DNA of 59,847 nt, counting the filler. It is 6 parts of 6 records of this genome, joined end to end, with 100 filler letters (N's around TTAATTAATTAA, not from the genome) between each part and the next. Parts side by side here need not be neighbours in the genome. Positions count along the whole stretch, not along the records: positions 26,436 to 43,453 come from DRR723986_20580; 5 more parts are not named here. One strand, given 5' to 3'. Below, piece by piece: positions 9,551-43,672 of the stretch; the first letter of the stretch is position 1; every line of letters starts with the position of its first letter. Made by a program: the position numbers and the translations under genes. The notes beneath the pieces were generated by a model. That model was not told the origin of the DNA. It saw only the letters and a program-made list of their open reading frames with translations, and ran no database searches.

Positions 9551-9554
9551 GATC

Positions 9555-17590: not shown

Positions 17591-17690
17591 NNNNNNNNNN
17601 NNNNNNNNNNNNNNNNNNNNNNNNNNNNNNNNNNTTAATTAATTAANNNNNNNNNNNNNNNNNNNNNNNNNNNNNNNNNNNNNNNNNNNN

Positions 17691-26335: not shown

Positions 26336-26435
26336 NNNNNNNNNNNNNNNNNNNNNNNNNNNNNNNNNNNNNNNNNNNNTTAATTAATTAANNNNNNNNN
26401 NNNNNNNNNNNNNNNNNNNNNNNNNNNNNNNNNNN

Positions 26436-26505
26436 AATACGTCGTTTCCAACTGAGGCGGTGCATTGGGGCTATTGAGGATATTGCTCAGACCCGTTGAA
26501 TTCAT
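26436..26505 (-). CDS. N-terminus of an unknown gene cut by the contig edge
   Basis: AGGAG RBS then ATG at 26505, open to the edge (MNSTGLSNILNSPNAPPQLETTY). Confidence 0.35.
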
Positions 26506-26604
26506 AAGACTACTCCTATTTTTGGATCGCTATTTGAGATCAAACTCTCACTTTTTGTATTGTAAACGAATGTCAAAAATTTAGTCGAGCAATAAATACT
26601 TGTA

Positions 26605-29600
26605 CTACAAGGATACGGTAATATCGACAACTGTCCCAGGTCTTTTTTCGTCATTTTCATTGAACTCCTTTGTATCAACACTGATTTTCCCCATACCTGT
26701 CTTTACATGTAATTCCATCCTTTGTTTAGTTAACCGCAAACCATGAGATTTATGAGTGCTTTTTCTCTTATCTCCATCCTTTCTGTCATTGTTAATTCCA
26801 AGACCATTATCACTAATTGAGATTCTCAGTGTTTCGGGTTCGGAGTTCCAGACCTTGACTCGTACTTCCCCATTCCCGTCTAATGGGTAAATTCCGTGCC
26901 AAATAGCGTTTTCTACGTATGGCTGTATAATCATAACCGGTATAAAAATTTCAGAAGGGTCGTCTATGACATCGACTTCTAGATGCCATTCAAATCGTTT
27001 TCCTAAGCGCATTTTTTCCAACTCGAAATAAAGCCCGAGTCTATTAACTTCATCTTCCAATGATATTGTTTCATTGAGAGAGTCGTCAAGGATCAATCGC
27101 ACAAGTTTTGAAAATTTTGACAGATAAATATTTGCTCTCGAGATAGTTTTATCAGTATTAAAGAAATGCTGAATTGATGTTAACGCATTAAATAGAAAGT
27201 GTGGATTGACTGTCAAATTTAGCGCTTGCTGCTGCAGTTGTGCAATCGATACCAATAATTGCTGTTTTTCCGCCGTTCGTTTATTTTTCGCTCTAATCAA
27301 AGCAAGAACAACGACGGACGAAACTAGCATGCCCACACTCAACACTGCCAACTGAAACCAAAGCCTTTGCCAAAATGGAGGAATAATGTGAATATTTAGT
27401 GTGGCAAGCCTTTTTGACCAATCGCTATTGTCAATTTTCGACTTCAGAATAAATGTATAGTTTCCTGGACTCAAGTTAGTATACTCTTTGAAGCTTTTTC
27501 TAGTATAGTTCCAATCAGCATCGACATTTTCCAGTTTGTACTGGAATTGTACTCCTTCTGGAAACTCATAGTTCAGTCCCACAAAGTCGATAACAAACTT
27601 TGACGAGTCATGTGGCAAAGTGATAGAGTCTGGATCCAAATATACTTTGTCATAAGAATTCACTCTAGTTATATATGTTTCGGGCGTAGACGTGTGAGCA
27701 GGTGTAAACTGTGTAGGTACAACTACAGAAGCACCCGCAGCAGTCCCGACCCACAAATTCTCATTATTATCAATTTGAAGCGACAATATTTCGTCCGAGA
27801 TAAGCCCCCGTTGTTTATTTATCGTGACAACTCCTGATGCTGTAATGCAGTTCAGTCCTTGCTTTGTTCCTACCCATATATTATGATTTGCGTCCATTGC
27901 TAAAGCCGTACATATCCGGTGAGATAGTCCATTACTTTGTGTATACTTTAACCATTCTCCATTACAATATCGAGCAACTCCGTTATCTGTAGCAATCCAC
28001 ACTACCCCATTTTTAGCTTGTAGAATGTCGCGCACCACATTGCTTGGAAGTCCATTTGAAACAGTGTGATGTTCATAATTTTCATCGTTAAGTAATATTA
28101 ACCCCATTTCAGTACCAATTAGTGTTCGACCAGCCTCATTATAGTTAATACAGAGTACCCTTGAATCCTTCAATTTTGTTGGTAGTTCATAACACTCTTT
28201 GATTTCATTGTTTTGAATGGAATATATTCCATCCCAGAACACACAGATGATTTGGTTGTTCTCAATTGGATACATTTGTAAGGGGGTTCCTGTCCTATGT
28301 ATTTTCTCAGCTGAAGAATCAATTCCTGTTTCATCTTTGGCCATCAAATACGAACCGTTCCTACTATCGGATTTTTGCCACACAAATTCATATTTGTCAT
28401 AAGTTGGCACTAGCCTTCCATAGTCAATTGTTGTTAATGAATTTGGATGATGGCTTACCAGTATTTTTGAATCAAGTGTTACAGCAACAGCATCAATTGT
28501 TTCTTGTGAAAATAGCTCTTGATAAACTAGTGTATCATTAGAAAGTGCTTTACCGCTGTCTTTTATCAAATATACAGCGTCATAACACCCTAGAATAACA
28601 TTTGAATCGCCTTCTAAACCAATAGAATGTACATACTTTCCTTTATGAATCTTTCGTATGTAAAGTGGTTTAGATTGCTTTATTGGTATAGTAAATACTC
28701 CGCTACCAAACGTGGAAACCCAAACGTTATTCGTTGAGTCAATGATTACATCATTTATCTGAGATTGCAAATTATCTACCAAACCCGAATAGTTTTCAAC
28801 TCCATTTCTCCCAACTTTGATTAGATCACTACCCTCGCCAGAAATCCAAAGATTGTTCCATCGGTCAGTCTTGATGTGCTGAACTTTATTAACTTTTTCG
28901 ACGCTTAGGTCTATGTATGAGCTTACACTTTCACCTTGAATAATGTATATTTTCCCGTCTGAACCGCAGTTTAAATGATTATCGTTTGATTCCTCAATAC
29001 AATATACAGGTTCATTTATTTCTGTTTGAAAATGACGTTCAGCAATACCATTTGAAACTTTAATTATTCCTATATCAGTTCCTAACAGCTTGTCTTGGTT
29101 CCCATACTCATATACACAGTAAATGTTTGGTTGTCCAGGTGTGAAGTTAGAGTGAATTTCATCAAACGTAAACTCTTTTACTATTTGGGGACTCAGACCT
29201 ATTCTGACATATGACAGATTCGTGGTAGAGAAGAGGCTTTCTCTTTTGCCGAGAATTAGATTAAGGAGACTATGAGGCAACTCCCCTTCCACTGGAACAT
29301 ACTCCTTAAATGCCCCATCCTTATATGTATGAAGCCTCCCATCATACGTGTTGATCCAGATCGTGCTATCTCGGGATTCAATGATTCCCAAAATTTGGCG
29401 GTCTTGAATCGGCTCGTATTGCTCAAATCTCTCAAACCTCTTGCCATCGAATCGGCACAGACCTAACTCTGTGCCGATCCAAATAAATCCCTTGCTGTCC
29501 TGGAAAAGTCTGAATACATTCGAATGTGGTAGGCCATCGTCAATCGTATATTGACGATACACTAAGTCCTGACCAAATACAAAATTACCAGAAAACAAAA

Positions 29601-29643
29601 GGATTGCCGTTATCAATGTGTACAGGTTCTTCATATTTTTCAC
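26605..29643 (-). CDS. LytS-type sensor histidine kinase with periplasmic beta-propeller and Y_Y_Y domain
   Basis: Signal peptide; repeated GL.SN..D..G.IW.GT propeller units; YKLEN..YTNLSPGNYTF; TM; NPHFLFNAL; QPYVENAIWHG; DNGLG. GTGA overlap with the upstream regulator. Confidence 0.93.
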   Translation of the reverse strand: MKNMKNLYTLITAILLFSGNFVFGQDLVYRQYTIDDGLPHSNVFRLFQDSKGFIWIGTELGLCRFDGKRFERFEQYEPIQDRQILGIIESRDSTIWINTYDGRLHTYKDGAFKEYVPVEGELPHSLLNLILGKRESLFSTTNLSYVRIGLSPQIVKEFTFDEIHSNFTPGQPNIYCVYEYGNQDKLLGTDIGIIKVSNGIAERHFQTEINEPVYCIEESNDNHLNCGSDGKIYIIQGESVSSYIDLSVEKVNKVQHIKTDRWNNLWISGEGSDLIKVGRNGVENYSGLVDNLQSQINDVIIDSTNNVWVSTFGSGVFTIPIKQSKPLYIRKIHKGKYVHSIGLEGDSNVILGCYDAVYLIKDSGKALSNDTLVYQELFSQETIDAVAVTLDSKILVSHHPNSLTTIDYGRLVPTYDKYEFVWQKSDSRNGSYLMAKDETGIDSSAEKIHRTGTPLQMYPIENNQIICVFWDGIYSIQNNEIKECYELPTKLKDSRVLCINYNEAGRTLIGTEMGLILLNDENYEHHTVSNGLPSNVVRDILQAKNGVVWIATDNGVARYCNGEWLKYTQSNGLSHRICTALAMDANHNIWVGTKQGLNCITASGVVTINKQRGLISDEILSLQIDNNENLWVGTAAGASVVVPTQFTPAHTSTPETYITRVNSYDKVYLDPDSITLPHDSSKFVIDFVGLNYEFPEGVQFQYKLENVDADWNYTRKSFKEYTNLSPGNYTFILKSKIDNSDWSKRLATLNIHIIPPFWQRLWFQLAVLSVGMLVSSVVVLALIRAKNKRTAEKQQLLVSIAQLQQQALNLTVNPHFLFNALTSIQHFFNTDKTISRANIYLSKFSKLVRLILDDSLNETISLEDEVNRLGLYFELEKMRLGKRFEWHLEVDVIDDPSEIFIPVMIIQPYVENAIWHGIYPLDGNGEVRVKVWNSEPETLRISISDNGLGINNDRKDGDKRKSTHKSHGLRLTKQRMELHVKTGMGKISVDTKEFNENDEKRPGTVVDITVSL

Positions 29644-30449
29644 TTCTTTGTATCTAATTTCCCTACGAGGCCTACAAAGTCCTGCAACTTGGATAAAAAC
29701 TCCCTCGTTCTACGCTTTGATACAATGAGCTTCTCATCATTACTAAGGCAAATTCGACCTGCAGAAGAGTAACAATACTCAGCTACATGCTGAAGATTAA
29801 TCAGGTGTGATTTATGGACTCTGCAGAAATACGCCCACCCAAGTATTTCCTCATAATCTTTCAAAGATCCCGTCACTATTAAGTCTCCCTCGTCTACAGT
29901 CCGCACCGTTGTGTAATGTGCATCGCTTCTGATATATATGATATTACTAATATCTACCACTTTTATTCCCCGTGGCCGATGCAATATAATTCTTGAAAAC
30001 TGTCCCTTTGCATTCAAATTATCATACAGGATGCCAGCTTGTGCTCCAAATGCAAAATTTCTGCCTAGCCCGTTTCCGGGATTTTCATACATTTCGACCA
30101 CTTTGTTGACAGCTTCGCGTAACTCCACTACATCAACTGGCTTCAACAAATAGTCTGCAGCCGAAGCTTTAATTGCACGAATTGCATGTTCATGATATGC
30201 AGTGATAAAAATGACAGAAAAAGAACGGTCCTCATAACCATCCAAGAATTCAAATCCATCCTCTTGAGGCATCATAATATCCAAAAATACCACGTCTGGA
30301 TGATGTTGTGCAACCAATTCTCTTGCTTCGACTGCAGATTTTGCGACACCTACGAGCTCTAGCTCTGGGCAATGATCACACAGAAGCTCAGAAATTACCT
30401 TACGGCTGTTCGCCTCATCGTCAACTATAATTGCAGTTAGTTTATCCAT
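29640..30449 (-). CDS. LytTR-family response regulator (copy 1)
   Basis: IIVDDE, FLDI.MP, TAY, DYLLKP receiver; FCRVHKSHLINL and VSKRR LytTR domain. Confidence 0.95.
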   Translation of the reverse strand: MDKLTAIIVDDEANSRKVISELLCDHCPELELVGVAKSAVEARELVAQHHPDVVFLDIMMPQEDGFEFLDGYEDRSFSVIFITAYHEHAIRAIKASAADYLLKPVDVVELREAVNKVVEMYENPGNGLGRNFAFGAQAGILYDNLNAKGQFSRIILHRPRGIKVVDISNIIYIRSDAHYTTVRTVDEGDLIVTGSLKDYEEILGWAYFCRVHKSHLINLQHVAEYCYSSAGRICLSNDEKLIVSKRRTREFLSKLQDFVGLVGKLDTKK

Positions 30450-30628
30450 AGTACTTTTCTCCAGAATGAGTCACTTAATATTGAAGTTTGAGTGTTCATG
30501 ATGAATTATGTGATTCCCCTTTTTCGTGCTCGCCTGCCTCTACATCAACAATAGTGTATTAAGCATTCAATGGGTCAAGAAGGGTGAATCAAATTGTTTG
30601 CCTGGTAGCAAAACCACGCACTAGCGTA

Positions 30629-30865
30629 TCAGCTAGGTTTAGTCAGGTGTGTTTCTGTGACAGTTATAGCAGCTTCGAGGCCTTCCAATACTGCTTTGTG
30701 ATCAAACTCGATGGTCTCATAGATGGGTGCCACATCACCTTCTCCCCTACGCGGATCATCAATAAATATGAATTCATCTTCCTGTAAATATGGTATAGAT
30801 CCAAATGCTACGCTGGAGTCTGTAGCAGTACTGCTGGTATTTGATGTGAAATTCGGTTTGAACAT
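30629..30865 (-). CDS. Small acidic protein (78 aa), paralog of 33308-33577
   Basis: Strong GGAGGAG RBS; shares P[YF]..[ED].., F[IL]DD, P[IV][YF]..[IL]E and [IV]T[VI][TS]E blocks with the second copy. Confidence 0.7.
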   Translation of the reverse strand: MFKPNFTSNTSSTATDSSVAFGSIPYLQEDEFIFIDDPRRGEGDVAPIYETIEFDHKAVLEGLEAAITVTETHLTKPS

Positions 30866-31010
30866 GATGATGTTTACTCCTCCAAGAACCTAGAATGACA
30901 AAGCGTTTTAGATTTACTGTTGAAGAAATGTATACAAGCGACTGGCAGTGTTTACTTGTATTCTTATTCAACTATTTGTGGTATCAAAGTATAATCGTGT
31001 AATGCGATTT

Positions 31011-31074
31011 CAAACAATATAAAGTTAAACGGCCCCTATTTTGGGGTAACCGTCCTGTAAAACAGGTTAAACGG
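31011..31074 (-). promoter_or_regulatory. Three direct repeats at 21-bp period, probable LytTR operator
   Basis: TAAACGG at 31026, TAACCGT at 31047, TAAACGG at 31068; CAAAC 15 bp before the first. Confidence 0.75.
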
Positions 31075-32034
31075 GAGTCAACTTTTGAATTTCATTCAAG
31101 TTGATAGAAGAATTACTCGCAATTTTTCTCTGAAATGACGCACTTAACAATCATATTTTACGTGATCTGATAGTTAGATTACGATTATCCTTGGACTCTT
31201 GAGGAAGCCGCTAGAATTTGATGGACAGTTGCAACCCTTAATTAATTGATTAACATTTTACCAATTCGGAAACTCCATATTAACCAAGTGATTAACTCTC
31301 ACAAAATATTCGGAATAGAATTTGATATATAAGAGTATACCAGAGTCCAGACAATATTGAATTGACCTTGATTTACTCGAGAATCAGCCTCCTACGTCCA
31401 GCCGGAACAACAAAACTTCTGTTGGCTAAAAACAGATGTATAACTAATTATAAGCACTAGGTGTCGGGGCTGTCTGTCCATTTTCTAAGAAAGTGAACAA
31501 CAGAAGCTCTAGAAAAAAACAATTAGCGATTATTCTGAGGCTTCAAAAATCGGAATAATTCTTTCTGAAGTCTTAGTTCTTTCAGCAGTCAAGAAAGAGA
31601 CAAAAATGCAGCAACAAAGGCTCTAGAAATGAATTCAATCAGCATGTAGTTCAATCATCTTTGGTGAAAACACACTACAACGCCTCGCTAAAAACTTCTA
31701 ACTACAACAGAGCTAGAGTTTTGCCGTATAACAGCCCACTCAAGAATTGGCATGTAGGTGACGGTGTTTTTATGCTGTTTTTTGCTCATCCTGCAGCATC
31801 TAAGTAGTAAATAGTTGATCGTAACTATGGGTACTTTAAACATGCCGCTTTAATGGCTGTAGTTTAAGCATTGAACCGTAAAAATTGTTAATCCGCAAGG
31901 GATATTTCTACTCTATAGGGTTGATTTGGAGCCTTCAATAGCTATCGCGGGTATTTCCAAAACAAGCATGTTGACTGTTAGTTTTACATTGCCTGAAAAC
32001 CGTCCATATCAATAACACAGTGGACATTTAAGCT

Positions 32035-32847
32035 CTACTTCTTAGATACGGACCGGTCGATAATATCGACATAGTTCTGAAGATCTAACAGGAACTCACG
32101 GGTTCTGCGTTTTGAAACAGTTAGAGTCTCGCCATTAGACAGTGATGCTTTGCCGCTGGTGTCATATGTATATTCGGTTACATGCATTAGGTTAACCAAA
32201 AATGACTTGTGAATTCGGCAGAAGCATAAATAACCAAGCATTTCTTCATAGTCTTTTAGTGACCCCGTAACAATTATATCTCCATCATCTACTAACCTGA
32301 CAGTCGTATAATTTGAATCACTTCGGATGTACAACACCTCGCCGATATTAACAACTTTTATTCCGCGCGGTCGATGAAGAATAATTTTTGTGAACTCTCC
32401 TTTGGCCTGTAAGTTGTCATACAAAATTTTGGCGTGTTCTTTCCCTTCAAAGTTGGGCCTGGACAATCCGCTCTTTTCTTCTCGATGTAGACTAATCAGT
32501 TTTCGAATCGCCTCGCGAAGATCAACTAAATCTATTGGTTTGAGAACATAATCTACTGCTGATGCTTTAATTGCTCGCAGTGCATGTTCGTGATAGGCGG
32601 TAACAAAAACAACTGAAAAAGGGCGATCTTCATATCCATCCAGAAAGTCAAACCCAGATTCTACCGGCATTGTGATATCTAGAAAAACGACGTCTGGTGA
32701 ATGTTCTTCAACAAGCTCTCTTGCAGCAGCAGCCGAATCTGCTATCCCGGCAACTTCTACTTCTGGGCAGTGATCAGTTAATAGCCTAGACAAGACTTGG
32801 CGGCCATTCGCTTCGTCATCGACAATTATTGAGATTAGCTTATCCAT
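32035..32847 (-). CDS. LytTR-family response regulator (copy 2)
   Basis: Same motifs as copy 1; about 70% identical in the receiver domain by manual alignment. Confidence 0.95.
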   Translation of the reverse strand: MDKLISIIVDDEANGRQVLSRLLTDHCPEVEVAGIADSAAAARELVEEHSPDVVFLDITMPVESGFDFLDGYEDRPFSVVFVTAYHEHALRAIKASAVDYVLKPIDLVDLREAIRKLISLHREEKSGLSRPNFEGKEHAKILYDNLQAKGEFTKIILHRPRGIKVVNIGEVLYIRSDSNYTTVRLVDDGDIIVTGSLKDYEEMLGYLCFCRIHKSFLVNLMHVTEYTYDTSGKASLSNGETLTVSKRRTREFLLDLQNYVDIIDRSVSKK

Positions 32848-33307
32848 GCTTTGGGGTATGTTTGTGTATTTCTGTGATAATCAATGCTATGCACTATTCT
32901 GGTTGTATAAACCGGAATTACTCAAAATATCTCATGTGTCCAAGCACTTTCTTCACACTTGTGGAGAGTCTCTTCATGGACAAGACTTCCAGATGGTCTT
33001 CGCTACCTAAAATTGTGCAACCCTGCAAAAATGCGACCTTCGGTCCATATTCTTCGGGTTGGATGAGAACGTGCTATTAAGGCCTTTTACGACTGGAGTA
33101 CCTATCAAGGATTGTTTCCATAGCCAATTGCTCACTATCTGGAAGAATCAAAACCGTTTGTGCCCTCAAAATCACTCACAATTTGTAAGTGGCAGACGCA
33201 AAGTTACTTGCCCAGATCTTTCGACGTTTGATCTCTCTAGTCAGGCCGAAACGTCTACTGTATCTAACGTGCTAGATAGCTACTGAGACTTCTCGGTACA
33301 GCAAAAG

Positions 33308-33577
33308 TTAGGCTGCGATAGAGATTCTTGTATTACGCAGAAGTTTGAGCGATTCGGATATAGTAACGACGTCCTTGGTTTTGTCTACCATGCTTTCAGT
33401 TTCCAGCGCAATGAACACGGGACGATTGTCTTCTTCTGATTCCGTCTCTGCTTCCATTGTCAGCTCAAAGTCCTCAGAATCATCCAGAAATGACAGGCTG
33501 TTGTCTTCATCTTTTACAAATGGTGTGAGTTCAGGGCGGAAAATAATAGATTTGATCAGTTGGTTTTGCGTATTCAT
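33308..33577 (-). CDS. Small acidic protein (89 aa), paralog of 30629-30865
   Basis: Same position in the duplicated module and the same motif blocks. Confidence 0.65.
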   Translation of the reverse strand: MNTQNQLIKSIIFRPELTPFVKDEDNSLSFLDDSEDFELTMEAETESEEDNRPVFIALETESMVDKTKDVVTISESLKLLRNTRISIAA

Positions 33578-33689
33578 AGCTGTTTTCGCCTAAGTTTATC
33601 GTTTCGATTCGTGCTTGGAAGGACTCTTTTCCTGTCCAGTCACTGAGTTATTGAATTCGATTGCAATCTATGGCGCGGACGCAAGTGCT

Positions 33690-33753
33690 CAAACCACATA
33701 AAATTAAGCGGGCAGTATTTCCGGGTAACCGGTCAGGAATTCGGGGTAACCGG
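33690..33753 (-). promoter_or_regulatory. Three direct repeats at 21-bp period, probable LytTR operator
   Basis: TAAGCGG at 33705, TAACCGG at 33726, TAACCGG at 33747; CAAAC 15 bp before the first. Confidence 0.75.
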
Positions 33754-33826
33754 GAATGAACGCTGTTCAAATTTGTTTTACGTTCGACGTTTCTAACATC
33801 AGTTTTGAAATTGGAATGACCAGATT

Positions 33827-36316
33827 ATGCCAAATATCCGCTTTTATAGGACATTCATTCTGCTTGTACTAAGCCTTGTTTGCATTCACTCTACAGGAAG
33901 GGCGCAGTCATCTGAATTTGACGAGATTATTGAGAAGCTAGATATTCTGGATGGATACTTTCCATTATATATAGACAGTGAGAGTGATGCGGTCTACATG
34001 TCGATTGAAAAGTCCCAGGGAGAGTTCCTCTATGTGACTTATCTGAGCTCAGGCGTCGGTTCCAATGACCTTGGTCTAGATCGCGGACAGATTCGCAGCA
34101 CACAACTGGTCGAATTTCAGAAGCTGGGGAACAAATTGCTTCTTGTGCAGCCCAATGAGACATTCATTGCATCCAGCACCAATAGTTCTGAGGTACGAGC
34201 TGTACGCGAAGCCTTTGCGCACTCTGTACTGTGGGGTTTTACAATCAAGGCTGAAAAAGACGGTACATACCTAATCGATGCCTCGGATTTTCTGCTTCGT
34301 CCGGACAACTCTCTCAGCAGGTCATTAAATAATCGCAAAGAGGGCAGTTTTTCTGTGGATGCTTCGCGATCTGCGATAGATTTCTCCAACTGTAAGTCTT
34401 TTCCGCAAAACACTGAAATCAATGTTTTCCTTACGTATACTGGTGGACCTGCAGGCAGGTATCTGCGTTCCGTCAGTCCCAACGCAAATGCTTTTACCGT
34501 TGGAATCCGGCATTCATTTGTTCAGTTGCCAATAGAACAATTTGAGATGCGACCGGCCGACCCGCGGATCGGGTACTTTACATTAGAGAAGTATGACTAC
34601 GCAGCGCCATACAATGAACCGATCCGTAAACACTACGTCATTAGGCATAGGCTTGAAAAGACAGACCCAGGTGCGGCCAAAAGTACTGTCAAAGAACCCA
34701 TAGTCTACTATCTGGATAGTGGAACTCCGGAACCTGTTAGATCTGCACTTCTTGACGGTGCCCGCTGGTGGAACACGGCTTTTGAAGAAGCGGGGTTCAT
34801 CGACGCTTTTAGAGTGGAGGTAATGCCGAGTGACGCAGACCCACTCGATATTCGCTATAACGTAATTCAGTGGGTACACCGCGCGACACGCGGATGGTCT
34901 TACGGGGCTTCAGTAGTCGACCCACGAACCGGTGAGATTATTAAAGGCCATGTGACCTTGGGATCGTTGCGCTTTAGACATGACTATAAGATTGCAGAAG
35001 CTTTACTTCAGCTATATTCAGATCCGGTATCTGATAGTAAAGTAAATCAGGCGCGTGAAATGGCAATTGCCCGTCTTCGGCAACTTTCAGCTCATGAAGT
35101 TGGCCACACTTTGGGACTGCTTCACAACTTTGCAGCCAGTTCATATTCCGATGGACTCGGATCTGTTATGGACTACCCACATCCGATGGTCACTTTCACA
35201 AGTGATTCTGCGCTGTCGCTCACCAATGCATATCCAACAGGCGTAGGTACGTGGGACAAGTTCGCTATCAAATATGGTTACTCTGACTTTGGTGAAAAAG
35301 GCGCTGAACTTAAGTTTTTACGAGAATACACGACTCGCAATATTTCTAGTAATACAAGCTACATTTCAGATAGTGATGCAAGAGCCGCAGGTGGAGCTCA
35401 CCCAAAGGCACATCTCTGGGATAATGGTACCAATGCAGCAGAACAACTTCAATACGTCCTTGATGTACGGCGTAAAGCAATTGAGCAATTTTCGGAACGA
35501 GCTATTCGCAATGGTACACCAATGTCTGAACTCGAATCGAGTTTCGCTCCTTTGTACTTCTTTCACCGATATCAGCTAAGCGCATGTTCGAAACTTGTGG
35601 GTGGAGTTGATTACGCATACAAAGTTCGAGGTGACAATTCTGATTTGGTGCAGGTTGTGGATCCAGGTGTCCAACGTGAAGCTATCGAGGCAATGATTCG
35701 CTCTGTATCTGTCCCGGATTTAACGATTCCGCCAAGATTGAGTAAAATGATCGTTCCGCCGGCACCTTATTACGGCGGAGACCGCGAAGGATTTGAGGGT
35801 TATACCGACCCAATATTCGATCCAATCGCCGCCGCTAAAAGTGCCGCAACAATGAGTTTAGAAGCCTTATTGCACCCAAACCGCGCTGCAAGACTGATTG
35901 AACAACACGCAAATGACAGTGCCCACTTGTCTTTCATTGATCTCTTGGAGAGGCTCCATGAAGTCGCGTTCTATGAAGAGCAAAAATCAGAAATGGATAG
36001 GACAATTCAGCGAACAGTGGCTCAAGCCTACCTGGCCACGATGTTCGAACTTATCGCAGATACTCAAATATCCGAAAACGTCAGAGCTCAGGCATATTAT
36101 TCACTTCAAATGCTTGCAGAGAAATTGACGGAGAGGTCTGGAGAAATAAATGACAGAGCTGAACTTGCGCATCTGACATTTTCACTTAAACAAATTGAGC
36201 TTATCCAGACGCCATCGGAGATTATTGGTTCCAGTTCGACACCTGATGCTCCACCGGGGTCCCCTATCGGGTCACCTGGACATATAGGATGTGACTGTTA
36301 TTCTACTCGTCCATAA
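33827..36316 (+). CDS. Secreted zinc-dependent metalloprotease (DUF5117/DUF4953, EcxA-like metzincin)
   Basis: Signal peptide; DPRIGYF, DPRTGEIIKG, HEVGHTLGLLHNF, SVMDY Met-turn. Confidence 0.9.
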   Translation: MPNIRFYRTFILLVLSLVCIHSTGRAQSSEFDEIIEKLDILDGYFPLYIDSESDAVYMSIEKSQGEFLYVTYLSSGVGSNDLGLDRGQIRSTQLVEFQKLGNKLLLVQPNETFIASSTNSSEVRAVREAFAHSVLWGFTIKAEKDGTYLIDASDFLLRPDNSLSRSLNNRKEGSFSVDASRSAIDFSNCKSFPQNTEINVFLTYTGGPAGRYLRSVSPNANAFTVGIRHSFVQLPIEQFEMRPADPRIGYFTLEKYDYAAPYNEPIRKHYVIRHRLEKTDPGAAKSTVKEPIVYYLDSGTPEPVRSALLDGARWWNTAFEEAGFIDAFRVEVMPSDADPLDIRYNVIQWVHRATRGWSYGASVVDPRTGEIIKGHVTLGSLRFRHDYKIAEALLQLYSDPVSDSKVNQAREMAIARLRQLSAHEVGHTLGLLHNFAASSYSDGLGSVMDYPHPMVTFTSDSALSLTNAYPTGVGTWDKFAIKYGYSDFGEKGAELKFLREYTTRNISSNTSYISDSDARAAGGAHPKAHLWDNGTNAAEQLQYVLDVRRKAIEQFSERAIRNGTPMSELESSFAPLYFFHRYQLSACSKLVGGVDYAYKVRGDNSDLVQVVDPGVQREAIEAMIRSVSVPDLTIPPRLSKMIVPPAPYYGGDREGFEGYTDPIFDPIAAAKSAATMSLEALLHPNRAARLIEQHANDSAHLSFIDLLERLHEVAFYEEQKSEMDRTIQRTVAQAYLATMFELIADTQISENVRAQAYYSLQMLAEKLTERSGEINDRAELAHLTFSLKQIELIQTPSEIIGSSSTPDAPPGSPIGSPGHIGCDCYSTRP

Positions 36317-36373
36317 TTCCGTAAATTGACTTGTGCATTTGTACAATTAGAATTTCGATTGTGACTAGCCGAT

Positions 36374-37066
36374 ATGAAACACTTCTGCCGAAATTTCGCG
36401 CTCATATTGAGCTGCATATTCTTACTGCAAGCTTGCCAAAACGGTGAAAAAGACACTGAAGCTATTGAGGTGCTATTTAAGAAGGGTGTGCGGCATTCAA
36501 TGACTGCCGCTGAATTTCTTGGCACTGGTAATATCGGCGAAGCAGATAAAGAATATGGCCTTTCTGTTGAAACTTTTCAGCAAGTCATCGCCAAAGATTC
36601 ACTACACCTGGGAGCTGTTGGAGGATTGGGACACAGCTACTTCCAGTTGGGAGAATACGAGAAAGCCATTGAAAGTCTCAAGAGTGCAATTAACATTGAC
36701 TCAGATTTTGCTGAAAACCACAGACTCCTGGGACTTTCACTTATTAACTTCGGCGACCTTCTTGAAGGCGGCAAAGAACTGCAGTACGCTCATCAGTTGA
36801 ATAATGACACTTCTTACTTCAAAACCACCATGCGCGATCTGGCCGGTATTGGGAAATCATCCTTTGAAAAAGGTTTAAGACTTGATAATACAATGGGGAA
36901 AAATGCCGGTCGGTCATATCAACACTTTGCCGTGGGAGTTTACATGTTAGCACATGACCTGGATTCAACCGATCGCAACATCATGCAAGCAATCGTTGAT
37001 ATGTGTACAAAGATTGGAGATACAACTACCGCTCAAATATTTGAACGTAAGTTGGCTGGTGATTAA
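36374..37066 (+). CDS. TPR-containing lipoprotein
   Basis: Lipobox LQAC; LGHSYFQLGEYEKAIESLKSAINID TPR. Confidence 0.75.
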   Translation: MKHFCRNFALILSCIFLLQACQNGEKDTEAIEVLFKKGVRHSMTAAEFLGTGNIGEADKEYGLSVETFQQVIAKDSLHLGAVGGLGHSYFQLGEYEKAIESLKSAINIDSDFAENHRLLGLSLINFGDLLEGGKELQYAHQLNNDTSYFKTTMRDLAGIGKSSFEKGLRLDNTMGKNAGRSYQHFAVGVYMLAHDLDSTDRNIMQAIVDMCTKIGDTTTAQIFERKLAGD

Positions 37067-37635
37067 GTATGATTAGATGTGGAAGTTTGAGGGCTAACAC
37101 TATCTGGAAAAGAATTGACGCGATTTAACCACCCTCTTAGGAATACTTTTAATTTTGGTTTTCGCGCTGCCAGTGACTCGTAATAGTTTGCACGAGACTT
37201 TTTGTAAGCCAGATAGAGTGTGTTGAGTTCTTCACTATTTATGGCTCTTAGAGTATTTGGTCCAAAAGCTCCATCCACTGCTAATGGCTTTTGGTTTGGG
37301 AATGTTGCATTATATGTTCGTTGAAAAACACGAATTGCATTGCCGCCGGCATTAACATAAAAGTCAAATGTGAAATCTGCCATTATTTGATTCTGAATAT
37401 CATCGCCAGAAATTCTATCCCAGTAGAGTGCTTTGTATATCTTAAAACACTGAGCATCCGTCAGGTTTTTAAGATTTTCCAATGTAGGTTCAATTCCAAG
37501 GATGCGCTGGGCTGTATTGCGAAAAGTTCCAATCGTAATCCCTTTGTTGGTTGCTCCTCCTGGATCATTTGGATTGTCTACGAATCCACCTTCATGTTTA
37601 AGGAGTGTCGGGAAAAAAACTTCAAAGTTCGCCAT
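37063..37635 (-). CDS. Glycoside hydrolase family 108 muramidase with peptidoglycan-binding domain
   Basis: HEGGFVDNPNDPGGATNKGIT; VDG.FGP.T; FLRGWLNRV. Confidence 0.92.
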   Translation of the reverse strand: MANFEVFFPTLLKHEGGFVDNPNDPGGATNKGITIGTFRNTAQRILGIEPTLENLKNLTDAQCFKIYKALYWDRISGDDIQNQIMADFTFDFYVNAGGNAIRVFQRTYNATFPNQKPLAVDGAFGPNTLRAINSEELNTLYLAYKKSRANYYESLAARKPKLKVFLRGWLNRVNSFPDSVSPQTSTSNHT

Positions 37636-37659
37636 GATTCACCTTAGTGTTAATTTAGA

Positions 37660-38583
37660 CTATCTGTCGATAGTAGCTGATGGGTCGAGTGGTCTTGATA
37701 TGGATATTCCAGTAAAATACTTTTTGTTACGAATATATTCTGCTAGATCGCTATCCAAATAAATTCCGTGGGTTGTAGAAGCATGTAGAAGACGGCAATT
37801 GCCTTCTTCGTCAAAATGTACAAATCCTGTGTGCGCATAGTCCAATCCAGCAATTGAAGTAGAGATACAGACTATATCACAGTTTTGCAGCTTGTCGTAT
37901 GCAGCTTCAATATCGTCTTGATCTATGTAAAGCCGTTTGTCTCTGTTTATCAATTTCTCGAAGGCGGCAATTTTACTAATAAATTCCGGATGCTCAACTA
38001 GTGCGGGGTACTTATCCGGATTTGTAGACATGAAGTTAACATCACCGACATATTTGGTGGCCCCTAGTTCAGCAGAAATATCTATTACCACCTGTTTGCT
38101 TTGATTATCCGTGATCCATTCGGATGTATAGTGCAGTCTTGAATCATATCCCTGCATTTTGCCTTTGCGGTAGCGCGTAAACTCAATTTCGGCAAGTAGT
38201 TCTTCCAGCGTTAGCCGCTGAAGTTTGATATTCCGCGCAATACATACAACAGCTTCGTAATATGTCACACAGTCAAAACCACCAAAATTGATTCGACACT
38301 GTTCCACTTGCGGATTTTCGAGTGTTCCAGCTTGGTAGGGCGTATCCAGAAATGAAAGTGCAATTTTTGTCATAAGAGCCGACATGGGCAATGATTGCCA
38401 GTTCTCAGCCTTTGACGTTGTAATAATTTGGTTAAACGCATCGACAGTTGTTGTTGACGGCGTGGGATATTCAGTGTTAACAATATTCTGGGCATCACCA
38501 CTACCAACTGCATAAAACAATACAGGGACTGTAAGCAATAGTGCGATACAGATTGAAATGATTGTGTATTTGCGACGATTCAT
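37660..38583 (-). CDS. DUF1460 NlpC/P60-like N-acetylmuramoyl-L-alanine amidase
   Basis: FLDTPY.AGTLE, FDCVTY.E, RLHY.SEW, GLD.AHTG, LHAS. Confidence 0.88.
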   Translation of the reverse strand: MNRRKYTIISICIALLLTVPVLFYAVGSGDAQNIVNTEYPTPSTTTVDAFNQIITTSKAENWQSLPMSALMTKIALSFLDTPYQAGTLENPQVEQCRINFGGFDCVTYYEAVVCIARNIKLQRLTLEELLAEIEFTRYRKGKMQGYDSRLHYTSEWITDNQSKQVVIDISAELGATKYVGDVNFMSTNPDKYPALVEHPEFISKIAAFEKLINRDKRLYIDQDDIEAAYDKLQNCDIVCISTSIAGLDYAHTGFVHFDEEGNCRLLHASTTHGIYLDSDLAEYIRNKKYFTGISISRPLDPSATIDR

Positions 38584-38620
38584 GTGACTTTCGGAGTTTC
38601 GTGTTTAACTAATACCTGTC

Positions 38621-39697
38621 TTACAACCCGGTTAACTCCAAAAGTTCTTTGCCTTCGGGATAACGCTCTACCAGTGACTTTTCATGAGTTTTTAAGCGGG
38701 CATAAGAGTCACTGAAAGAATGTTTGGATTCGTCAGTTCGTTTTTGGCGGTACAGAAAAAAGGATAGAAAAATCCCACCAAATGTATACTCTGGAAACGC
38801 AACCGGAATTTCACGAAGGTAACTTTCGGCCAACTCAAATTCTTTGCGGTCTTCACATATCTTCGCGATGTTTAATCGCGCTCGTGCAAAAGAAGGTTTA
38901 GCGCCGATTGCGCGAGAATACCATAACAATGCTTCATCTGTTCTGTTTAACTTTTCTAAAGCAATCCCCAGTGCCAACATCGTAGTTTCTTCATCAGGCA
39001 TTAATTTCAGAATAGTTTGGCATGTTTCTACAACTTGATCCCACTGTTTTAGGACCTGATAAACCTGAACCTTAATTGCGTGATATCGGTAGCGATAAGG
39101 ATCAGAAGTTATTAATCGATTAATTACTGGGACAGCTGTCTTTTCGACATCAATGTCATGCCCTTGAGCCTTGGCCCAAGCCATGGTAAAGGCATAGTCT
39201 TCCAGTCCAGATGGAAGCTCACCTTCTGCGAGATTGGCAACTACATCCTGAAATATATTAAGTGATTCTTCAGTGCGCCCGCGCCAGTTTAGAGCAAATC
39301 CAAGTGCAAGTCTTACAGATGGATCTTTGGACATGCCGGCTTGTTGTATCAACTCTTCAGCGGCTTGTTCATCTTCCAAAAAGGCGATGTAGGTTGCTTT
39401 TAACAATTCGGAATTAGTCTGTTCAATTCCTTCTGTTAATGCTGTTTCCCCGGCTTCATCCATCCGGGTTACATCGCGAAAACAGGCAAAAGCCAGGAAG
39501 CTGTACCATTCGGGGTTACCTGTTGGATTGAGATAGATTGCACGTTTTAAGAATTTACGTGCAATGTTCAGGCGAGTTCTTGACTCTAGTTCAATGCCGA
39601 TTTCACCGACGCGTTCTGCGTTATTCCAGTGAGTATATGCTTCGTCAATTAAATGTTCTATCGTTTGGAACTGCATTGTCTGCCAACTATTGATCAA
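38621..39697 (-). CDS. Tetratricopeptide repeat protein
   Basis: Multiple TPR-like helical repeats (LALGIALEKLNRTDEALLWYSRAI); true start may be 39676. Confidence 0.75.
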   Translation of the reverse strand: MINSWQTMQFQTIEHLIDEAYTHWNNAERVGEIGIELESRTRLNIARKFLKRAIYLNPTGNPEWYSFLAFACFRDVTRMDEAGETALTEGIEQTNSELLKATYIAFLEDEQAAEELIQQAGMSKDPSVRLALGFALNWRGRTEESLNIFQDVVANLAEGELPSGLEDYAFTMAWAKAQGHDIDVEKTAVPVINRLITSDPYRYRYHAIKVQVYQVLKQWDQVVETCQTILKLMPDEETTMLALGIALEKLNRTDEALLWYSRAIGAKPSFARARLNIAKICEDRKEFELAESYLREIPVAFPEYTFGGIFLSFFLYRQKRTDESKHSFSDSYARLKTHEKSLVERYPEGKELLELTGL

Positions 39698-40449
39698 AGA
39701 AAAACATTCAGACTTGGGAGGCCAATAGGCTCAATTGAATAAAAAGCTTCTGCGTGAGTCACGCCAATTTTTGCACCAAAATAACGCGATCTGGCTTCCA
39801 GGAATCCAGAAAACTCTGGCCTGGAGATAAAAGTTTGCGGTTCATCTGCATAGTCAGTGTTGCCAGGAACATGAAATTGCGATGAATAGGCCTGTACTGC
39901 CTGAATCTTGTCCTCATAATATGCACTAATGTCAACATAGAATGCCGGTGCAAACTCATACGTTTGCATGTAGCAAAAAGTATTGAGTGGACGGTATGGC
40001 TTCTGAACGAGACCATTGTGCATACTCTTGACTTTACTTAGTCCAGATACAAATAGTGCGCGCCGTACAAGGTTATGTGTTTGTTCGTGATCTGGATGAC
40101 GATCTCGTTGAGGCGGAAATAATAGGAGTTTAGGGCGATAGTGCCTAAACACTCGGATCATTGCTTCAACCTGAGCCTCACTGCTGTCTATTTTTCCATC
40201 CGGTAATGCCAAATTCTCACGGAATTGAATCCCAAGCACTTGTGCAGCGTGATCAGCTTCGACTTTGCGCAACTCAGGCGTGCCACGAGATCCAAGTTCG
40301 CCACGGGTGCAATCAACAATTGCGACGCGTTTTCCACTTAGAACGGCAGATCTGATTGTTCCACCACATGATAACTCTGCATCATCGGGATGGGCCGCAA
40401 TAACCAGAATATCGACGTCTTCCTGGTGTTGGTTGTTTGCAGTGCTCAT
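39694..40449 (-). CDS. bshB1: Bacillithiol biosynthesis deacetylase BshB1 (PIG-L family)
   Basis: AAHPDDAELSCGG, TRGELGSRGT, DRHPDH, AYSSQF. Confidence 0.88.
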   Translation of the reverse strand: MSTANNQHQEDVDILVIAAHPDDAELSCGGTIRSAVLSGKRVAIVDCTRGELGSRGTPELRKVEADHAAQVLGIQFRENLALPDGKIDSSEAQVEAMIRVFRHYRPKLLLFPPQRDRHPDHEQTHNLVRRALFVSGLSKVKSMHNGLVQKPYRPLNTFCYMQTYEFAPAFYVDISAYYEDKIQAVQAYSSQFHVPGNTDYADEPQTFISRPEFSGFLEARSRYFGAKIGVTHAEAFYSIEPIGLPSLNVFL

Positions 40450-40619
40450 AATTTGGTGTATTCCGGCAATGGTTGGGTTTCTTTTGCAACTATTGCAAAA
40501 TGGGGATGATAGTGCAGAAGGTCAAACGCTATTTCATACTTGCCTGAAAATGTTGCTTTACAGGGGGATATTAGAACGTCTTCTCCTCAACATGTTATAG
40601 AATTGTTTACAATATCAAG

Positions 40620-41115
40620 AACGGTTTTCCACAATTATCGCGAAGTTATCCACACTAGATGCCTATTCTGATTTTGGTAGCCGAACTTTGAGCAATTTTC
40701 CGGGCCTCTTAAAATAAGTCGAAAAACACACAAGCTTTTGAGTGCTTTTTTTGACGGTTTTGGCAATTGTCAATTCAGTGACTGTCAAAAAAACGTCGAT
40801 TTCCTGCAAATATCGGAGCTTTTCCACCATTTCGTAACTTTCCCACATGGTTATCAACATGCAATCGCTTTTTATGTGGAAAGCACTGTAAAACTGTGGG
40901 AGTTTTCCAGATTTCAAGAGTGGTAGTCAGTCAATAAAGGTGTTTTCCCACAGTGATGTTGAAATCGTGATGTTTTCCACAGTGTTTTCCACATACTTTT
41001 TCACCAAGACTTTAGCGAATTACTATCGATTTTTTAGCGAAATAGGATGATTTAAAAACTTATCCACTTATCCACAGATGTATTAACATCATATAATAGA
41101 TATTTAAAAACTAAA
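40620..41115. other. Probable chromosomal replication origin (oriC)
   Basis: TTATCCACA at 40646 and 41068; 1-mismatch boxes at 40625, 40851, 40973, 40985, 41060; tandem boxes followed by TAT-TAA-CAT-CAT and an AT-rich tract. Confidence 0.8.
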
Positions 41116-41144
41116 AGCTTGAAAGGGAAAACCAGGATTTGAAA

Positions 41145-42413
41145 TCAAGCGCTTATTTCTGTCATGCCTACATAACTTTGCAGTGCCGCCGGAATCTTTA
41201 GACTGCCGCTTTCAGTCTGGTGACTTTCAATCAATGAAACAATGATACGCGGAGTGGCCAAAGCACTTCCGTTGAGCGTATGTACAAATCCTGTTTTACC
41301 ACCCTCTTTGGGACGATATTTGATTGATGCGCGCCGAGCCTGGTAGTCTTCGAAGTTGGAACAACTCGATACTTCAAGCCATTTTTGCTCCACAGGTGAC
41401 CAAACTTCTATATCGTATGTTTTGGCGCTCCCAAACGTGGTGTCACCAGCACATAGCAGAATTACGCGGTACGTCAGCTCCAGAGATTCTAATAGTGCTT
41501 CTACGTGGCTTACAAATGCCTCCAGAGCATCGTAGGAGTCCTCAGGCTTCGTAAATGCGACCATTTCAACCTTGTTGAACTGGTGTAAGCGCTGAAATCC
41601 ACGCGTATCTTTGCCATAACTGCCCGCTTCCCTGCGAAAACAAGGACTATATGTGCAGTATTTCACTGGCAAGCTTGCTTCCGGCATTATTTCACTGGAG
41701 TGATAGTTCGTCAATGGAACTTCTGCAGTCGGAATCAGGAACAGGTCATCCTCAGTGCAATGATACATGTCCTCCGCAAATTTCGGAAGCTGTCCAGTGC
41801 CAATCATTGATTGCCGATTGACAACAAAGGGAACCATCATTTCCTGAAAGCCACCTTTGTCTGTATTGAAGTCAAGGAAGTAGTTGATCATTGCGCGTTC
41901 AAGACGTGCGCCTTTACCGGTATAGACCGGAAATCCACGGCCAGAAATTTTTGCGCCGCGTTCAAAGTCATACATTCCCAGTTTATTCGAAACATCCAGG
42001 TGATCTTTGCGAAATCCTCTCTCCAGTAAAACTCCCGAGCGACGGATTTCAATATTGTCCTCGGCTGTATTTCCATCAGGTACACTAGCGTGTAACATGT
42101 TTGGGATTGACAACGCTATATCATTCAACATTTCATCCAATTCGCGGATGCGTTCATCTGCGCTTTTGATGGAGGTTGAGACTTCACGCATTGCTGCAAT
42201 CAACTCATCTGCATTTTCGCCATTCTTCTTTTTACTGGCTACTTCGGCACTTACACTATTGCGCTTGCTCTTTAATTCTTCGACGGATTGAATTGCCTGG
42301 CGGCGCTCAGTATCTAATTTAATGAATGTAGATACATCGGCATCACTGTTTTTGCGAATGGTGTTTGACTGAACGACTTCTGGATTTTGGCGAATAAAAT
42401 TACGATCAAGCAT
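41145..42413 (-). CDS. serS: Serine--tRNA ligase
   Basis: GTGQLPKF, LIPTAEVP, CFRREAGSYG, HQFNKVE, EVSSCSN, HTLNGS. Confidence 0.98.
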   Translation of the reverse strand: MLDRNFIRQNPEVVQSNTIRKNSDADVSTFIKLDTERRQAIQSVEELKSKRNSVSAEVASKKKNGENADELIAAMREVSTSIKSADERIRELDEMLNDIALSIPNMLHASVPDGNTAEDNIEIRRSGVLLERGFRKDHLDVSNKLGMYDFERGAKISGRGFPVYTGKGARLERAMINYFLDFNTDKGGFQEMMVPFVVNRQSMIGTGQLPKFAEDMYHCTEDDLFLIPTAEVPLTNYHSSEIMPEASLPVKYCTYSPCFRREAGSYGKDTRGFQRLHQFNKVEMVAFTKPEDSYDALEAFVSHVEALLESLELTYRVILLCAGDTTFGSAKTYDIEVWSPVEQKWLEVSSCSNFEDYQARRASIKYRPKEGGKTGFVHTLNGSALATPRIIVSLIESHQTESGSLKIPAALQSYVGMTEISA

Positions 42414-42472
42414 GGCAGTACCACGATAATAAGAATGTGAGTGTTAAATATTAACTACTACAATTATGCAAG

Positions 42473-43408
42473 CTACAATTTCCATTCGCGGTAGCCAAAC
42501 AATTGCATTTGCCGGCGCATAGTAATCAAACCATCGGCGATTTTGGAAAAGTTAATTCCCAAATCCGTTTCGGCCTTAAGTGTTACTAAGCCTGCTTTTA
42601 ATGGTCGTTGAACCGAAGGTTTTAGAGAGGCTGTTGTAATTGCTTGTAGCAAGTTGACATCAAGACTATAGGTTTTTGCAATTTTGGCTGCAAAGTCAAA
42701 GCGATTGCAATACTCTGAGCCGGCGACATTATAGATACCTAGCCGTCGTTTGTTAATCAGTTTTTTAACAGCATAGGCCAAATCATCAATTAATGTTGGG
42801 TTATGATACTGATCGTTTACAACGCCAAACGGTTTGCCTTGCTGAAATTTCTCTACAATCTTAATCACGAAGTCAGGTTTGAAGCTGGTTGTAGCCCCGT
42901 ATAGAACATTTGTACGCACTATTGCATATTCAATATTGCCTGTAGCGCAGACATTTTCTGCTGCCAACTTTGTTTTGCCGTAGTAGTTCACAGGATTGGG
43001 AGTGGCTGTTTCCGGATACGGACCAGCTGCACCATCAAAAATATAGTCCGTTGAAAGATGAATCAGATGTGAATCCAGAATACGACACATTCCAACCAGG
43101 TTTTCAACACCGCGGACATTAACATTCCAGGCTTCCTGTCTGTTGCTTTCACAGTATTCAACATTGGTAATAGCGGCCGTGTTAACAATTGTGGTGGGCC
43201 GTTCTTTTAAACATACTTCTTTTAGTGCCTTGCGGTCGGTAAAATCGCCTTTATAAAACGCGAGTTTTTCATCGTGTTCGGCAGTAGCTGTGTTTCTGGA
43301 AAGCAGAACAACACGATGATCTGTTTCCGTTTTTAACACTCTGGTGATTGCTTCTGCACTGCGACTTCCAGCACCGACGATCAGGATACATGCTTGATCT
43401 TTTTCCAC
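42473..43408 (-). CDS. dTDP-4-dehydrorhamnose reductase family (RmlD-like) SDR
   Basis: NTAAITNV, STDYIFDG, YGKTK, DQYHNPT. Confidence 0.85.
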   Translation of the reverse strand: MEKDQACILIVGAGSRSAEAITRVLKTETDHRVVLLSRNTATAEHDEKLAFYKGDFTDRKALKEVCLKERPTTIVNTAAITNVEYCESNRQEAWNVNVRGVENLVGMCRILDSHLIHLSTDYIFDGAAGPYPETATPNPVNYYGKTKLAAENVCATGNIEYAIVRTNVLYGATTSFKPDFVIKIVEKFQQGKPFGVVNDQYHNPTLIDDLAYAVKKLINKRRLGIYNVAGSEYCNRFDFAAKIAKTYSLDVNLLQAITTASLKPSVQRPLKAGLVTLKAETDLGINFSKIADGLITMRRQMQLFGYREWKL

Positions 43409-43672
43409 TTGAAGCCTCGGATTCTAAATACCGAAATTCTACTATATAGTAGANNNNNNNNNNNNNNNNNNNNNNNNNNNNNNNNNNNNNNNNNNNNTTA
43501 ATTAATTAANNNNNNNNNNNNNNNNNNNNNNNNNNNNNNNNNNNNNNNNNNNNTGGCAACGCAAGATCCATCATGGCCTTCTCAAGCCTCTCGTGAGATT
43601 ACCTCTCGCTCTGCCGGACACGTCGGTGTCGGCCGCTGCCTGCGGAGAGCTGTCCGCTGATGGCGGTGTGTT

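Follow-up and report, generated by a model that had tools for sequence, protein, structure and literature searches.

A putative autoregulated LytTR locus with two regulators, one propeller kinase and small acidic first genes

In well-studied bacteria, virulence, competence and bacteriocins are under the control of LytTR regulators. To our knowledge, there is hardly any work on their propeller-kinase relatives, of which Bacteroidota have many. Here we describe a putative system of this kind in a window of 59,847 bases (the whole stretch of DNA that was analysed), in which two response regulators with receiver (REC) and LytTR domains, RR1 and RR2, are encoded together with one sensor kinase, two promoters with three boxes each (PA and PB) and two small acidic proteins (s78 and s89). 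The same kinase core (PF06580 and HATPase_c) and the same REC–LytTR type of regulator are found in BtsS/BtsR (YehU/YehT) and YpdA/YpdB of E. coli and in LytSR of Staphylococcus. The sensor of BtsSR and LytSR is a multi-pass LytS membrane domain, whereas the kinase described here has a periplasmic double propeller and a Y_Y_Y domain, with a single helix. The locus further differs from these systems in its two regulators, three boxes, putatively autoregulated regulator operons and small acidic first genes. In NCBIfam, RR1 and RR2 both match BtsR best but are not its orthologues, because their scores (121 and 114 bits) fall below the equivalog cut-off of 246 bits; orthology with LytSR likewise fails, at 92 bits for the NCBIfam LytR model against a cut-off of 375. 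The sensor part is also shared with hybrid two-component systems of Bacteroides, whose Reg_prop and Y_Y_Y periplasmic sensors bind glycans and which hold kinase, receiver and AraC-type output in one chain. Here, by contrast, a LytS-type core is combined with two separate LytTR regulators, and Pfam finds neither a receiver nor a helix-turn-helix domain in the 1012-residue kinase.

Small genes ahead of a kinase and a LytTR regulator are familiar from the Agr, ComCDE, PlnABCD and Blp cassettes, which also have repeats ∼21 bp apart upstream of the −35 element and are positively autoregulated. These cassettes encode an exported precursor and a polytopic receptor kinase, features that are both lacking here. 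PlnC and PlnD are two LytTR proteins in one circuit, as are BlpR and BlpS. The second regulator of the present locus differs in being a complete REC–LytTR paralogue that has a promoter and a small gene to itself.

The closest precedent for the role proposed below for s78 and s89 comes from the LytTR regulatory systems (LRS) HdrRM and BrsRM. According to PMC6193735, a small co-transcribed protein controls the LytTR regulator of these systems, and their autoactivated operons carry 12-bp-spaced repeats ∼10 bp upstream of −35. The regulators of LRS have no REC domain and no kinase, and their inhibitor is a transmembrane protein encoded downstream, whereas the small proteins here are soluble, acidic and encoded upstream. 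The operators of RcoM1 and CoxC, as presented in PMC11347149, also consist of three imperfect direct repeats with 12–13-bp spacing. These are one-component carbon monoxide regulators with haem/PAS or MHYT sensors, however, and their repeats (TTCNNGCA / TTNNNGCN) are unlike the boxes here; the CoxC operator overlaps −35 and represses, unlike the layout of PA and PB.

The core of the locus (operators and regulators) is of a known kind, and its small partners are undescribed and confined to a few related bacteria. Paired or triple repeats with a 21-bp period, positive autoregulation and circuits with two LytTR proteins are all in print (PMC6193735, PMC11347149, PMC4847170 and bioRxiv 10.1101/2020.06.04.131722). 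Searches of the open-access literature turned up no account of soluble small proteins that partner LytTR response regulators, and none of this arrangement with a propeller kinase. The original prediction, which had been made from the DNA letters, did not recognise a described system; this view holds for the small partners but is overstated for the operators, the autoregulation and the two-LytTR circuit, which are of known kinds.

Regulators, kinase and their relatives

On the minus strand, the order is PA, s89, RR2, a spacer of ∼950 nt, PB, s78, RR1 and the kinase. RR1 (269 residues; 29640..30449, minus strand) and RR2 (270 residues; 32035..32847, minus strand) are LytTR-family response regulators, with both domains above the Pfam cut-offs of 30.2 bits for Response_reg and 22.6 bits for LytTR: the scores are 76.3 bits (2.5e-21) and 73.0 bits (2.4e-20) for RR1, and 72.8 and 67.3 bits for RR2. 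The two proteins are 65% identical. Their phospho-acceptor pockets are intact, with D57 and K103 invariant and D10, D11 and T83 nearly invariant in a 38-row alignment that includes both. RR1 is co-operonic with the sensor histidine kinase (1012 residues; 26605..29643, minus strand), the start of which overlaps the RR1 stop by 4 nt; RR2 has no kinase gene of its own. The kinase comprises a signal peptide, a double beta-propeller (Reg_prop), a Y_Y_Y domain, one membrane helix, His_kinase (PF06580; 59.4 bits, profile positions 2–81 of 81) and HATPase_c (32.6 bits), and the last two place its core in the LytS/LytTR two-component class. Its propeller/Y_Y_Y ectodomain spans ∼740 residues, and its single helix (residues 765–783) has a hydropathy maximum of 2.71.

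Both units lie wholly inside one contig of 17,018 bases and 40% GC (window positions 26436–43453). The window itself consists of at least six contigs, separated by N spacers, which hold paired runs of 44 N, at 6029–6128, 12292–12391, 17591–17690, 26336–26435 and 43454–43553. The GC content of its pieces runs from ∼40% (the piece with the locus) to 73% (∼51–73% for the others), and the window therefore mixes organisms. Genome G001, which matches other contigs of the window, shares nothing with the contig at 26436–43453.

Relatives were traced via the seryl-tRNA synthetase (SerS) encoded on this contig: of 301 Bacteroidota genomes, G227 had the closest match (60%), and the order to which G227 belongs (254 genomes) was then searched. 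Close regulators occur in only three of these 254 genomes (G804, G803 and G801). The SerS proteins of G804 and G803 are 76% identical to that of the window and are encoded on the same contig as the locus. A protein search returned a tight group of regulators at 48–87% identity, followed by a gap down to ≤44%. G804 keeps the full order of a divergent zincin gene, PA, an s89 homologue, RR2, a gap of ∼0.8 kb, PB, an s78 homologue, RR1 and the kinase. In G803 the same order has decayed, with RR2 lacking residues 30–198 and the kinase in four fragments; PB, the s78 homologue and RR1 are intact. As a separate observation, the G803 locus (G803:C43:6000-24000, ∼7135–11600) is 71–83% identical to that of G804, and its flanks are ∼91% identical. 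The third genome, G801, has six regulator–propeller-kinase pairs at 43–53% identity.

The two regulators have diverged to very different extents. RR2 is 87% identical to its G804 orthologue (93% in the LytTR domain), and RR1 is 64–65% identical to its G804 and G803 orthologues (71% in the LytTR domain); in the tree, the branch lengths of the window proteins are 0.41 for RR1 and 0.06 for RR2. The kinase and its G804 orthologue are 51% identical overall, 84% in the His_kinase domain and 40–51% in the propellers. RR1 and RR2 form sister clades (support 100/99) nested among regulator–propeller-kinase pairs, and the tree topology therefore points to an old duplication of the regulator, in the common ancestor of the window lineage and G804/G803, with the kinase not copied or later lost. 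Compared as DNA, the two units resemble each other in two places, the regulator genes, with 65% identity over 785 nt, and a promoter stretch of 96 nt, with 70% identity (E 5e-9); every other match has E ≥ 0.1. This agrees with the claim that little else is similar between them. The accompanying view of a duplicated three-part module stands for regulators and promoters but not for the small open reading frames (ORFs), which are only analogous.

The spacer between RR2 and PB (31081..32034, minus strand) is possibly the site of a lost kinase gene. Its longest ORF has at most 51 codons' worth of residues (≤51 aa), and it shows no Rfam match and no DNA conservation with the equivalent gap of G804; the whole contig has no Rfam match at E ≤ 1. 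No remnant of a second kinase was found in this gap past RR2, where tblastn with the kinase gave only matches with E ≥ 1.1. We lean towards a single kinase that serves both regulators. This fits the originally proposed autoregulatory circuit of two regulators and one LytS-type kinase, to which the predicted layout conforms.

Promoters with three boxes at a 21-bp period

The features that tie the two units together are their promoters. PB (30986..31073, minus strand) carries the boxes CGTTTA (31068–31073), CGGTTA (31047–31052) and CGTTTA (31026–31031), followed after 10 nt from the box repeat by a −35-like TTGAAA (31008–31013) and, after a further 16 nt, by a −10-like TACTTT (30986–30991). PA (33665..33752, minus strand) has CGGTTA (33747–33752), CGGTTA (33726–33731) and CGCTTA (33705–33710), with a −35-like TTGAGC (33687–33692) and a −10-like TAGATT (33665–33670) at the same 10-nt and 16-nt distances; the −35 and −10 assignments in both promoters are alignments by eye. 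The three boxes keep an exact 21-bp period in each promoter. They had been predicted as TAANCGK at 31026/31047/31068 and 33705/33726/33747, and all six are present on the plus strand, as is, in both copies, the CAAAC placed exactly 15 bp from the first box, which corresponds to the −35-like hexamer. Extended, the repeats are 9-mers (e.g. CCGGTTACC, CCGCTTAAT, CCGTTTAAC) with 12-nt spacers, and the proximal 9-mer of PA and PB ends 10 nt upstream of the −35-like hexamer.

Six of the nine plus-strand occurrences of TAANCGK in the contig (17,018 bases) fall in the two triple arrays, and CGNTTA-N15-CGNTTA-N15-CGNTTA has two matches in the 59,847-base window versus none in 100 dinucleotide-preserving shuffles. 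Pairs of CGNTTA at 20–22 bp are absent from the 855,703 bases of 76 loci around distant regulator homologues. A generic terminator scan did not rise above shuffles.

Conservation follows the same elements. Between the window and G804, PA is 76% identical over 71 nt, the adjoining intergenic DNA is unalignable, and G804 keeps all three boxes at the same spacing, together with the −35 and a CCATAGnTT element. The boxes and spacing of PB are kept in G804 and G803, and the single boxes vary among CGGTTA, CGCTCA and CGCTTA; from this variation, the working core of the predicted box is CCGNTYA. Across the window, G804 and G803, boxes, spacing, −35 and −10 are conserved against non-conserved intergenic surroundings. 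For comparison, the BtsR consensus is ACC[G/A]CT[C/T]A with a 13-bp spacer.

Published LytTR operators have much the same form. The usual site is two repeats of 9–11 nt with spacers of 11–13 nt, according to PMC4847170, and PMC6193735 reports repeats mostly 12 bp apart, with a strong bias for 10 bp upstream of −35, and positive autoregulation. The box geometry of PA and PB, as predicted sites, is this canonical LytTR arrangement, in keeping with the proposal that the boxes are LytTR-type direct repeats. The predicted core CCGNTYA and its period also resemble the BtsR site of E. coli: in the ‘yjiY YehT bs’ oligo of PMC4847170, CCGCTCA, CCGCTTA and CCACTCA follow each other in steps of 20 and 21 nt by our own count. 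With this geometry and conservation, the boxes are probably the operators of the two regulators, and the circuit is probably autoregulated.

Alternatively, the boxes could be relics of repeated elements or binding sites for some other protein (a replication initiator, transposase or nucleoid factor, for instance). The same pattern does match iterons 655 nt upstream of a Rep3 gene in G804, four copies of a conserved non-coding element in that genome, and several contig-end sites in G803. Nonetheless, such an origin is highly improbable for PA and PB, near which there is no replication or transposase gene. In both units, as in two further genomes, a constant distance separates their boxes from the −35/−10-like hexamers. 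The core agrees with the BtsR site of E. coli, and the LytTR genes that the sites flank are the only two of the RR1/RR2 clade.

The relatives also hold what may be a wider regulon. For the relaxed pattern CGNTYA-N15-CGNTYA-N15-CGNTYA, G804 has 19 matches and G803 has 32 (nine of them in one tandem array), versus 0 in the reversed control; G801 has three, versus one in its reversed control. Reading of the G804 sites sorts 12 of the 19, including PA and PB, into one design, in which box 3 is followed by a T-run, a −35-like TTGnnn and, at a fixed distance, a TAgnTTG-like element; the other seven comprise four in the repeated non-coding element, one Rep3 iteron set and two unclassified sites. The ∼ten further promoter-like sites in G804 suggest a candidate regulon. 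They precede genes for a secreted LTD/FlgD_ig protein, a PQQ/BamB-like propeller, GNAT and FkbM enzymes, a PAPS reductase with an epimerase, an OEP protein and a ResIII helicase. Among the 10 LytTR genes of G804, triple-box sites adjoin only those of RR1 and RR2.

Small acidic proteins and the proposed circuit

The first gene of the s78–RR1–kinase operon encodes s78 (78 residues, pI 4.3; 30629..30865, minus strand), with a GGAGGAG ribosome-binding site 11 nt upstream of its start, and the first gene of the s89–RR2 unit encodes s89 (89 residues, pI 4.2; 33308..33577, minus strand). Both ORFs, and the LytTR regulators behind them, lie where they had been predicted, the domains of the latter being identified by Pfam. 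All intact copies of s78 and s89 have a pI of 4.1–4.3, and the small proteins range from 78 to 95 residues. The s78 protein and its syntenic counterparts in G804 and G803 have in common the motif IP[FY][LM]Q[DE]DE[FY][IL]FID[DY]P, and s78 has a predicted C-terminal helix; in s89, the N-terminal 31 residues are nearly invariant and the middle is variable and acidic. The ratio of nonsynonymous to synonymous substitution rates (dN/dS) is 0.23 for s78 (G804 versus G803) and 0.38 for s89 (window versus G804), with 0.10 for RR1 as a comparison value. Because of these dN/dS values of 0.23–0.38 and the conserved motifs, s78 and s89 are judged, from sequence comparison, to be real genes under purifying selection. 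The claim that they are dedicated proteins is borne out by this selection and by the synteny kept in relatives. As a side observation, the C-terminus ...SIAA is common to s89 and its G804 homologue P0001, and the G803 copy reads through. An Ala-Ala C-terminus recalls protease-targeting tails.

Relatives of these proteins are scarce. Among 5.8 billion clusters, s89 has two, P0001 (45% identical over its full length) and P0002, which lie upstream of RR2 in G804 and of the RR2 remnant in G803; its profile found no relative in 401 genomes of the class, and none of 530 pattern matches in metagenome contigs was confirmed. For s78, which is 23–30% identical to its counterparts, a word search found no relatives, and a family profile searched against 1.84 billion representatives recovered only its own cluster and a weak match (profile positions 11–36) in a 1095-residue protein. 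Neither profile matched elsewhere in 122 loci and 37 further triple-box loci beyond these operons, and neither protein has a Pfam, NCBIfam or ESM Atlas match. AlphaFold2 models from three-row alignments have a mean pLDDT of 52 for s89 and 58 for s78 (with a helix at 56–75 in s78), and the proteins are accordingly predicted to be mostly disordered with a C-terminal helix. None of the five small proteins has a membrane segment, their maximum 19-residue hydropathy being ≤0.63 versus 2.71 for the kinase helix. A predicted complex of RR2 with s89, run without alignments, scored 0.00 (mark 0.34), which speaks neither for nor against an interaction.

We propose that the locus is a LytTR system of two regulators under positive autoregulation, in which each operon begins with the gene of a cytoplasmic modulator. 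To this statement as a whole, weighted to its core, we give a probability of roughly 0.55. Judging from its domains, the kinase would sense an extracytoplasmic ligand via its double-propeller/Y_Y_Y domain, and it would phosphorylate its operon partner RR1 and probably also the kinase-less RR2. The phosphorylated regulators would then occupy the three direct 9-bp repeats, as geometry and conservation suggest. Occupancy would activate the s89–RR2 and s78–RR1–kinase units, such that regulator and kinase levels would rise in a positive feedback. The divergent zincin gene may likewise respond to PA, and in the relatives the same regulators would probably drive ∼ten further promoters (G804). Under this hypothesis, s78 and s89 would be made first, stay cytoplasmic and modulate, most likely damp, the cognate regulator or the kinase, giving each unit its own feedback element. 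Damping is favoured because of the analogies with co-encoded LRS inhibitors and BlpS. The modulator role taken by itself is tentative and rather doubtful. A bolder form of it is unlikely: s78 and s89 would be an undescribed class of soluble, acidic, disordered partners that bind their own LytTR regulator, for example by covering its basic DNA-binding face, with each unit a co-evolving activator-plus-brake module.

The original hint at peptide signalling did not survive the comparison. Here, the small ORFs would encode exported peptide-signal precursors sensed by the propeller kinase, in a quorum-sensing cassette resembling comCDE, plnABCD or agr, with the zincin possibly processing the peptide. 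A small gene ahead of a LytTR regulator and a kinase does mirror the Gram-positive cassettes (as in Blp), s89 combines 31 conserved N-terminal residues with a variable remainder, s78 (23–30%) and the sensor domain of the kinase (40–51%) both evolve fast, and a secreted protease gene diverges from PA. The small proteins, however, have no hydrophobic segment or signal peptide, show no double-glycine leader on reading of the sequences, and are strongly acidic with 78–95 residues. No exporter gene is present around the locus on the contig, and the kinase is a single-pass propeller sensor rather than a polytopic peptide receptor. Peptide signalling is therefore improbable, and cytoplasmic modulation is the version that we carry forward.

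A more serious competitor, although still an unlikely one, accepts the regulators and boxes as proposed and places the small proteins outside the control loop, as lineage-specific outputs or passengers (for example, related to stress or the envelope) or as young orphans of marginal function. Their orphan status suits this idea, with one true relative cluster among the 1.84 billion representatives for s78 and two relatives for s89, as do the lack of family or Atlas matches, the predicted disorder and the related regulator–kinase pairs of G801, which work without small proteins. Purifying selection and conserved motifs speak for a function, however, and the small ORFs always come first in the operons of the regulators, with no occurrence elsewhere in 159 loci. 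Moreover, the same slot of both units is filled by small acidic proteins that are unrelated to each other, each evolves at a pace that follows the adjacent regulator, and in G803 the decay of RR2 is accompanied by that of s89.

Several points weigh against the proposed circuit of two autoregulated regulators with cytoplasmic modulators. RR2 may be served by a kinase encoded elsewhere. The six G801 pairs have no triple repeat within 400 nt upstream and no small-ORF homologue, so that generality cannot be claimed for the design. Comparison of s78 with s89 does not support homology, with a BLASTP E of 0.12, a profile–profile probability of 0.25% (E 0.25) and a shared P[FY]-x-x-acidic stretch of only 8 columns. 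The paired pace of evolution, slow in s89 (45%) with RR2 (87%) and fast in s78 (23–30%) with RR1 (64%) and the kinase (51%), rests on two pairs in three genomes. In G803, where RR2 lacks residues 30–198, s89 has lost its stop codon and has a dN/dS of 0.83, a value that may partly reflect a frameshift. A generic sigma-70 promoter scan was not enriched (10 found versus 11.2 expected). The 21-bp-period pattern alone is not LytTR-specific, because Rep3 iterons and the repeated non-coding element also match it in G804, and the extra G804 sites could be owned by any of eight other LytTR proteins.

The co-occurrence proposed as a check gave a narrow answer. G804 and G803 share the layout, but boxes and small ORFs are absent both from the six G801 pairs and from 106 loci of distant regulator homologues (76 genome loci, best identity 41%, and 30 metagenome loci, best 36%; the boxes were sought as CGNTTA pairs in the 76 genome loci). 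Because of these absences, the module is limited to a small clade; they do not refute it. This three-genome distribution limits generality. Even so restricted, the locus offers a clean testable case: three CCGNTYA boxes define the putative operator, the two paralogues have diverged at very different rates, a single kinase is present, and a relative holds a candidate regulon. Should s78 and s89 turn out to be modulators specific to their regulators, the co-encoded inhibitors of LytTR proteins, so far membrane proteins of streptococci, would have soluble counterparts in two-component systems. The two small proteins would then also exemplify the small, fast-evolving proteins that annotation misses.

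Other sites of the pattern and neighbouring genes

The gene divergent from PA encodes a secreted Met-zincin (DUF5117 and DUF4953 by Pfam, 829 residues; 33827..36316, plus strand) and is syntenic in G804 and G803. Box 1 of PA lies ∼70 bp from its start, and the gene may be a further target of the PA boxes and thus co-regulated. The contig neighbours of the locus are zincin, TPR, GH108, BshB-like, SerS and RfbD-like genes. Among them, a lysozyme-like protein with glycoside hydrolase 108 and PG_binding_3 domains (37063–37635, minus strand) adjoins a 307-residue protein without a known family. Lysozyme-like proteins of the GH108/PG_binding_3 type are often phage-derived.

Each of the four copies of the repeated non-coding element in G804 has a conserved end, CATAGCTGCGCCCAAAATTT, followed by three CCGYTCA boxes with a 21-bp period, and this unit may represent the terminus of a mobile element. 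In G803, comparable sites sit no more than 300 nt from contig ends. No tRNA gene was found at these places. The triple box upstream of the Rep3-type replication initiator gene (G804:C26:67960-73007; distance 655 nt) is located beside a gene with an EVE domain and is probably a set of plasmid-type iterons.

Across the order, 65 of the 254 genomes match the pattern. Outside G803 and G804, these are mostly exact or near-exact tandem arrays among the matches listed, a view that covers the first 150 of 316 listed matches and five further genomes, such that real sites may lie among the rest. One genome without close RR1/RR2 homologues, G796, carries ∼ten arrays of a 21-bp unit (CGTTCACTCCGTTTTTGCCTA and variants) over 20 kb (G796:C44:20906-40549), which could be a repeated promoter element of a gene cluster.

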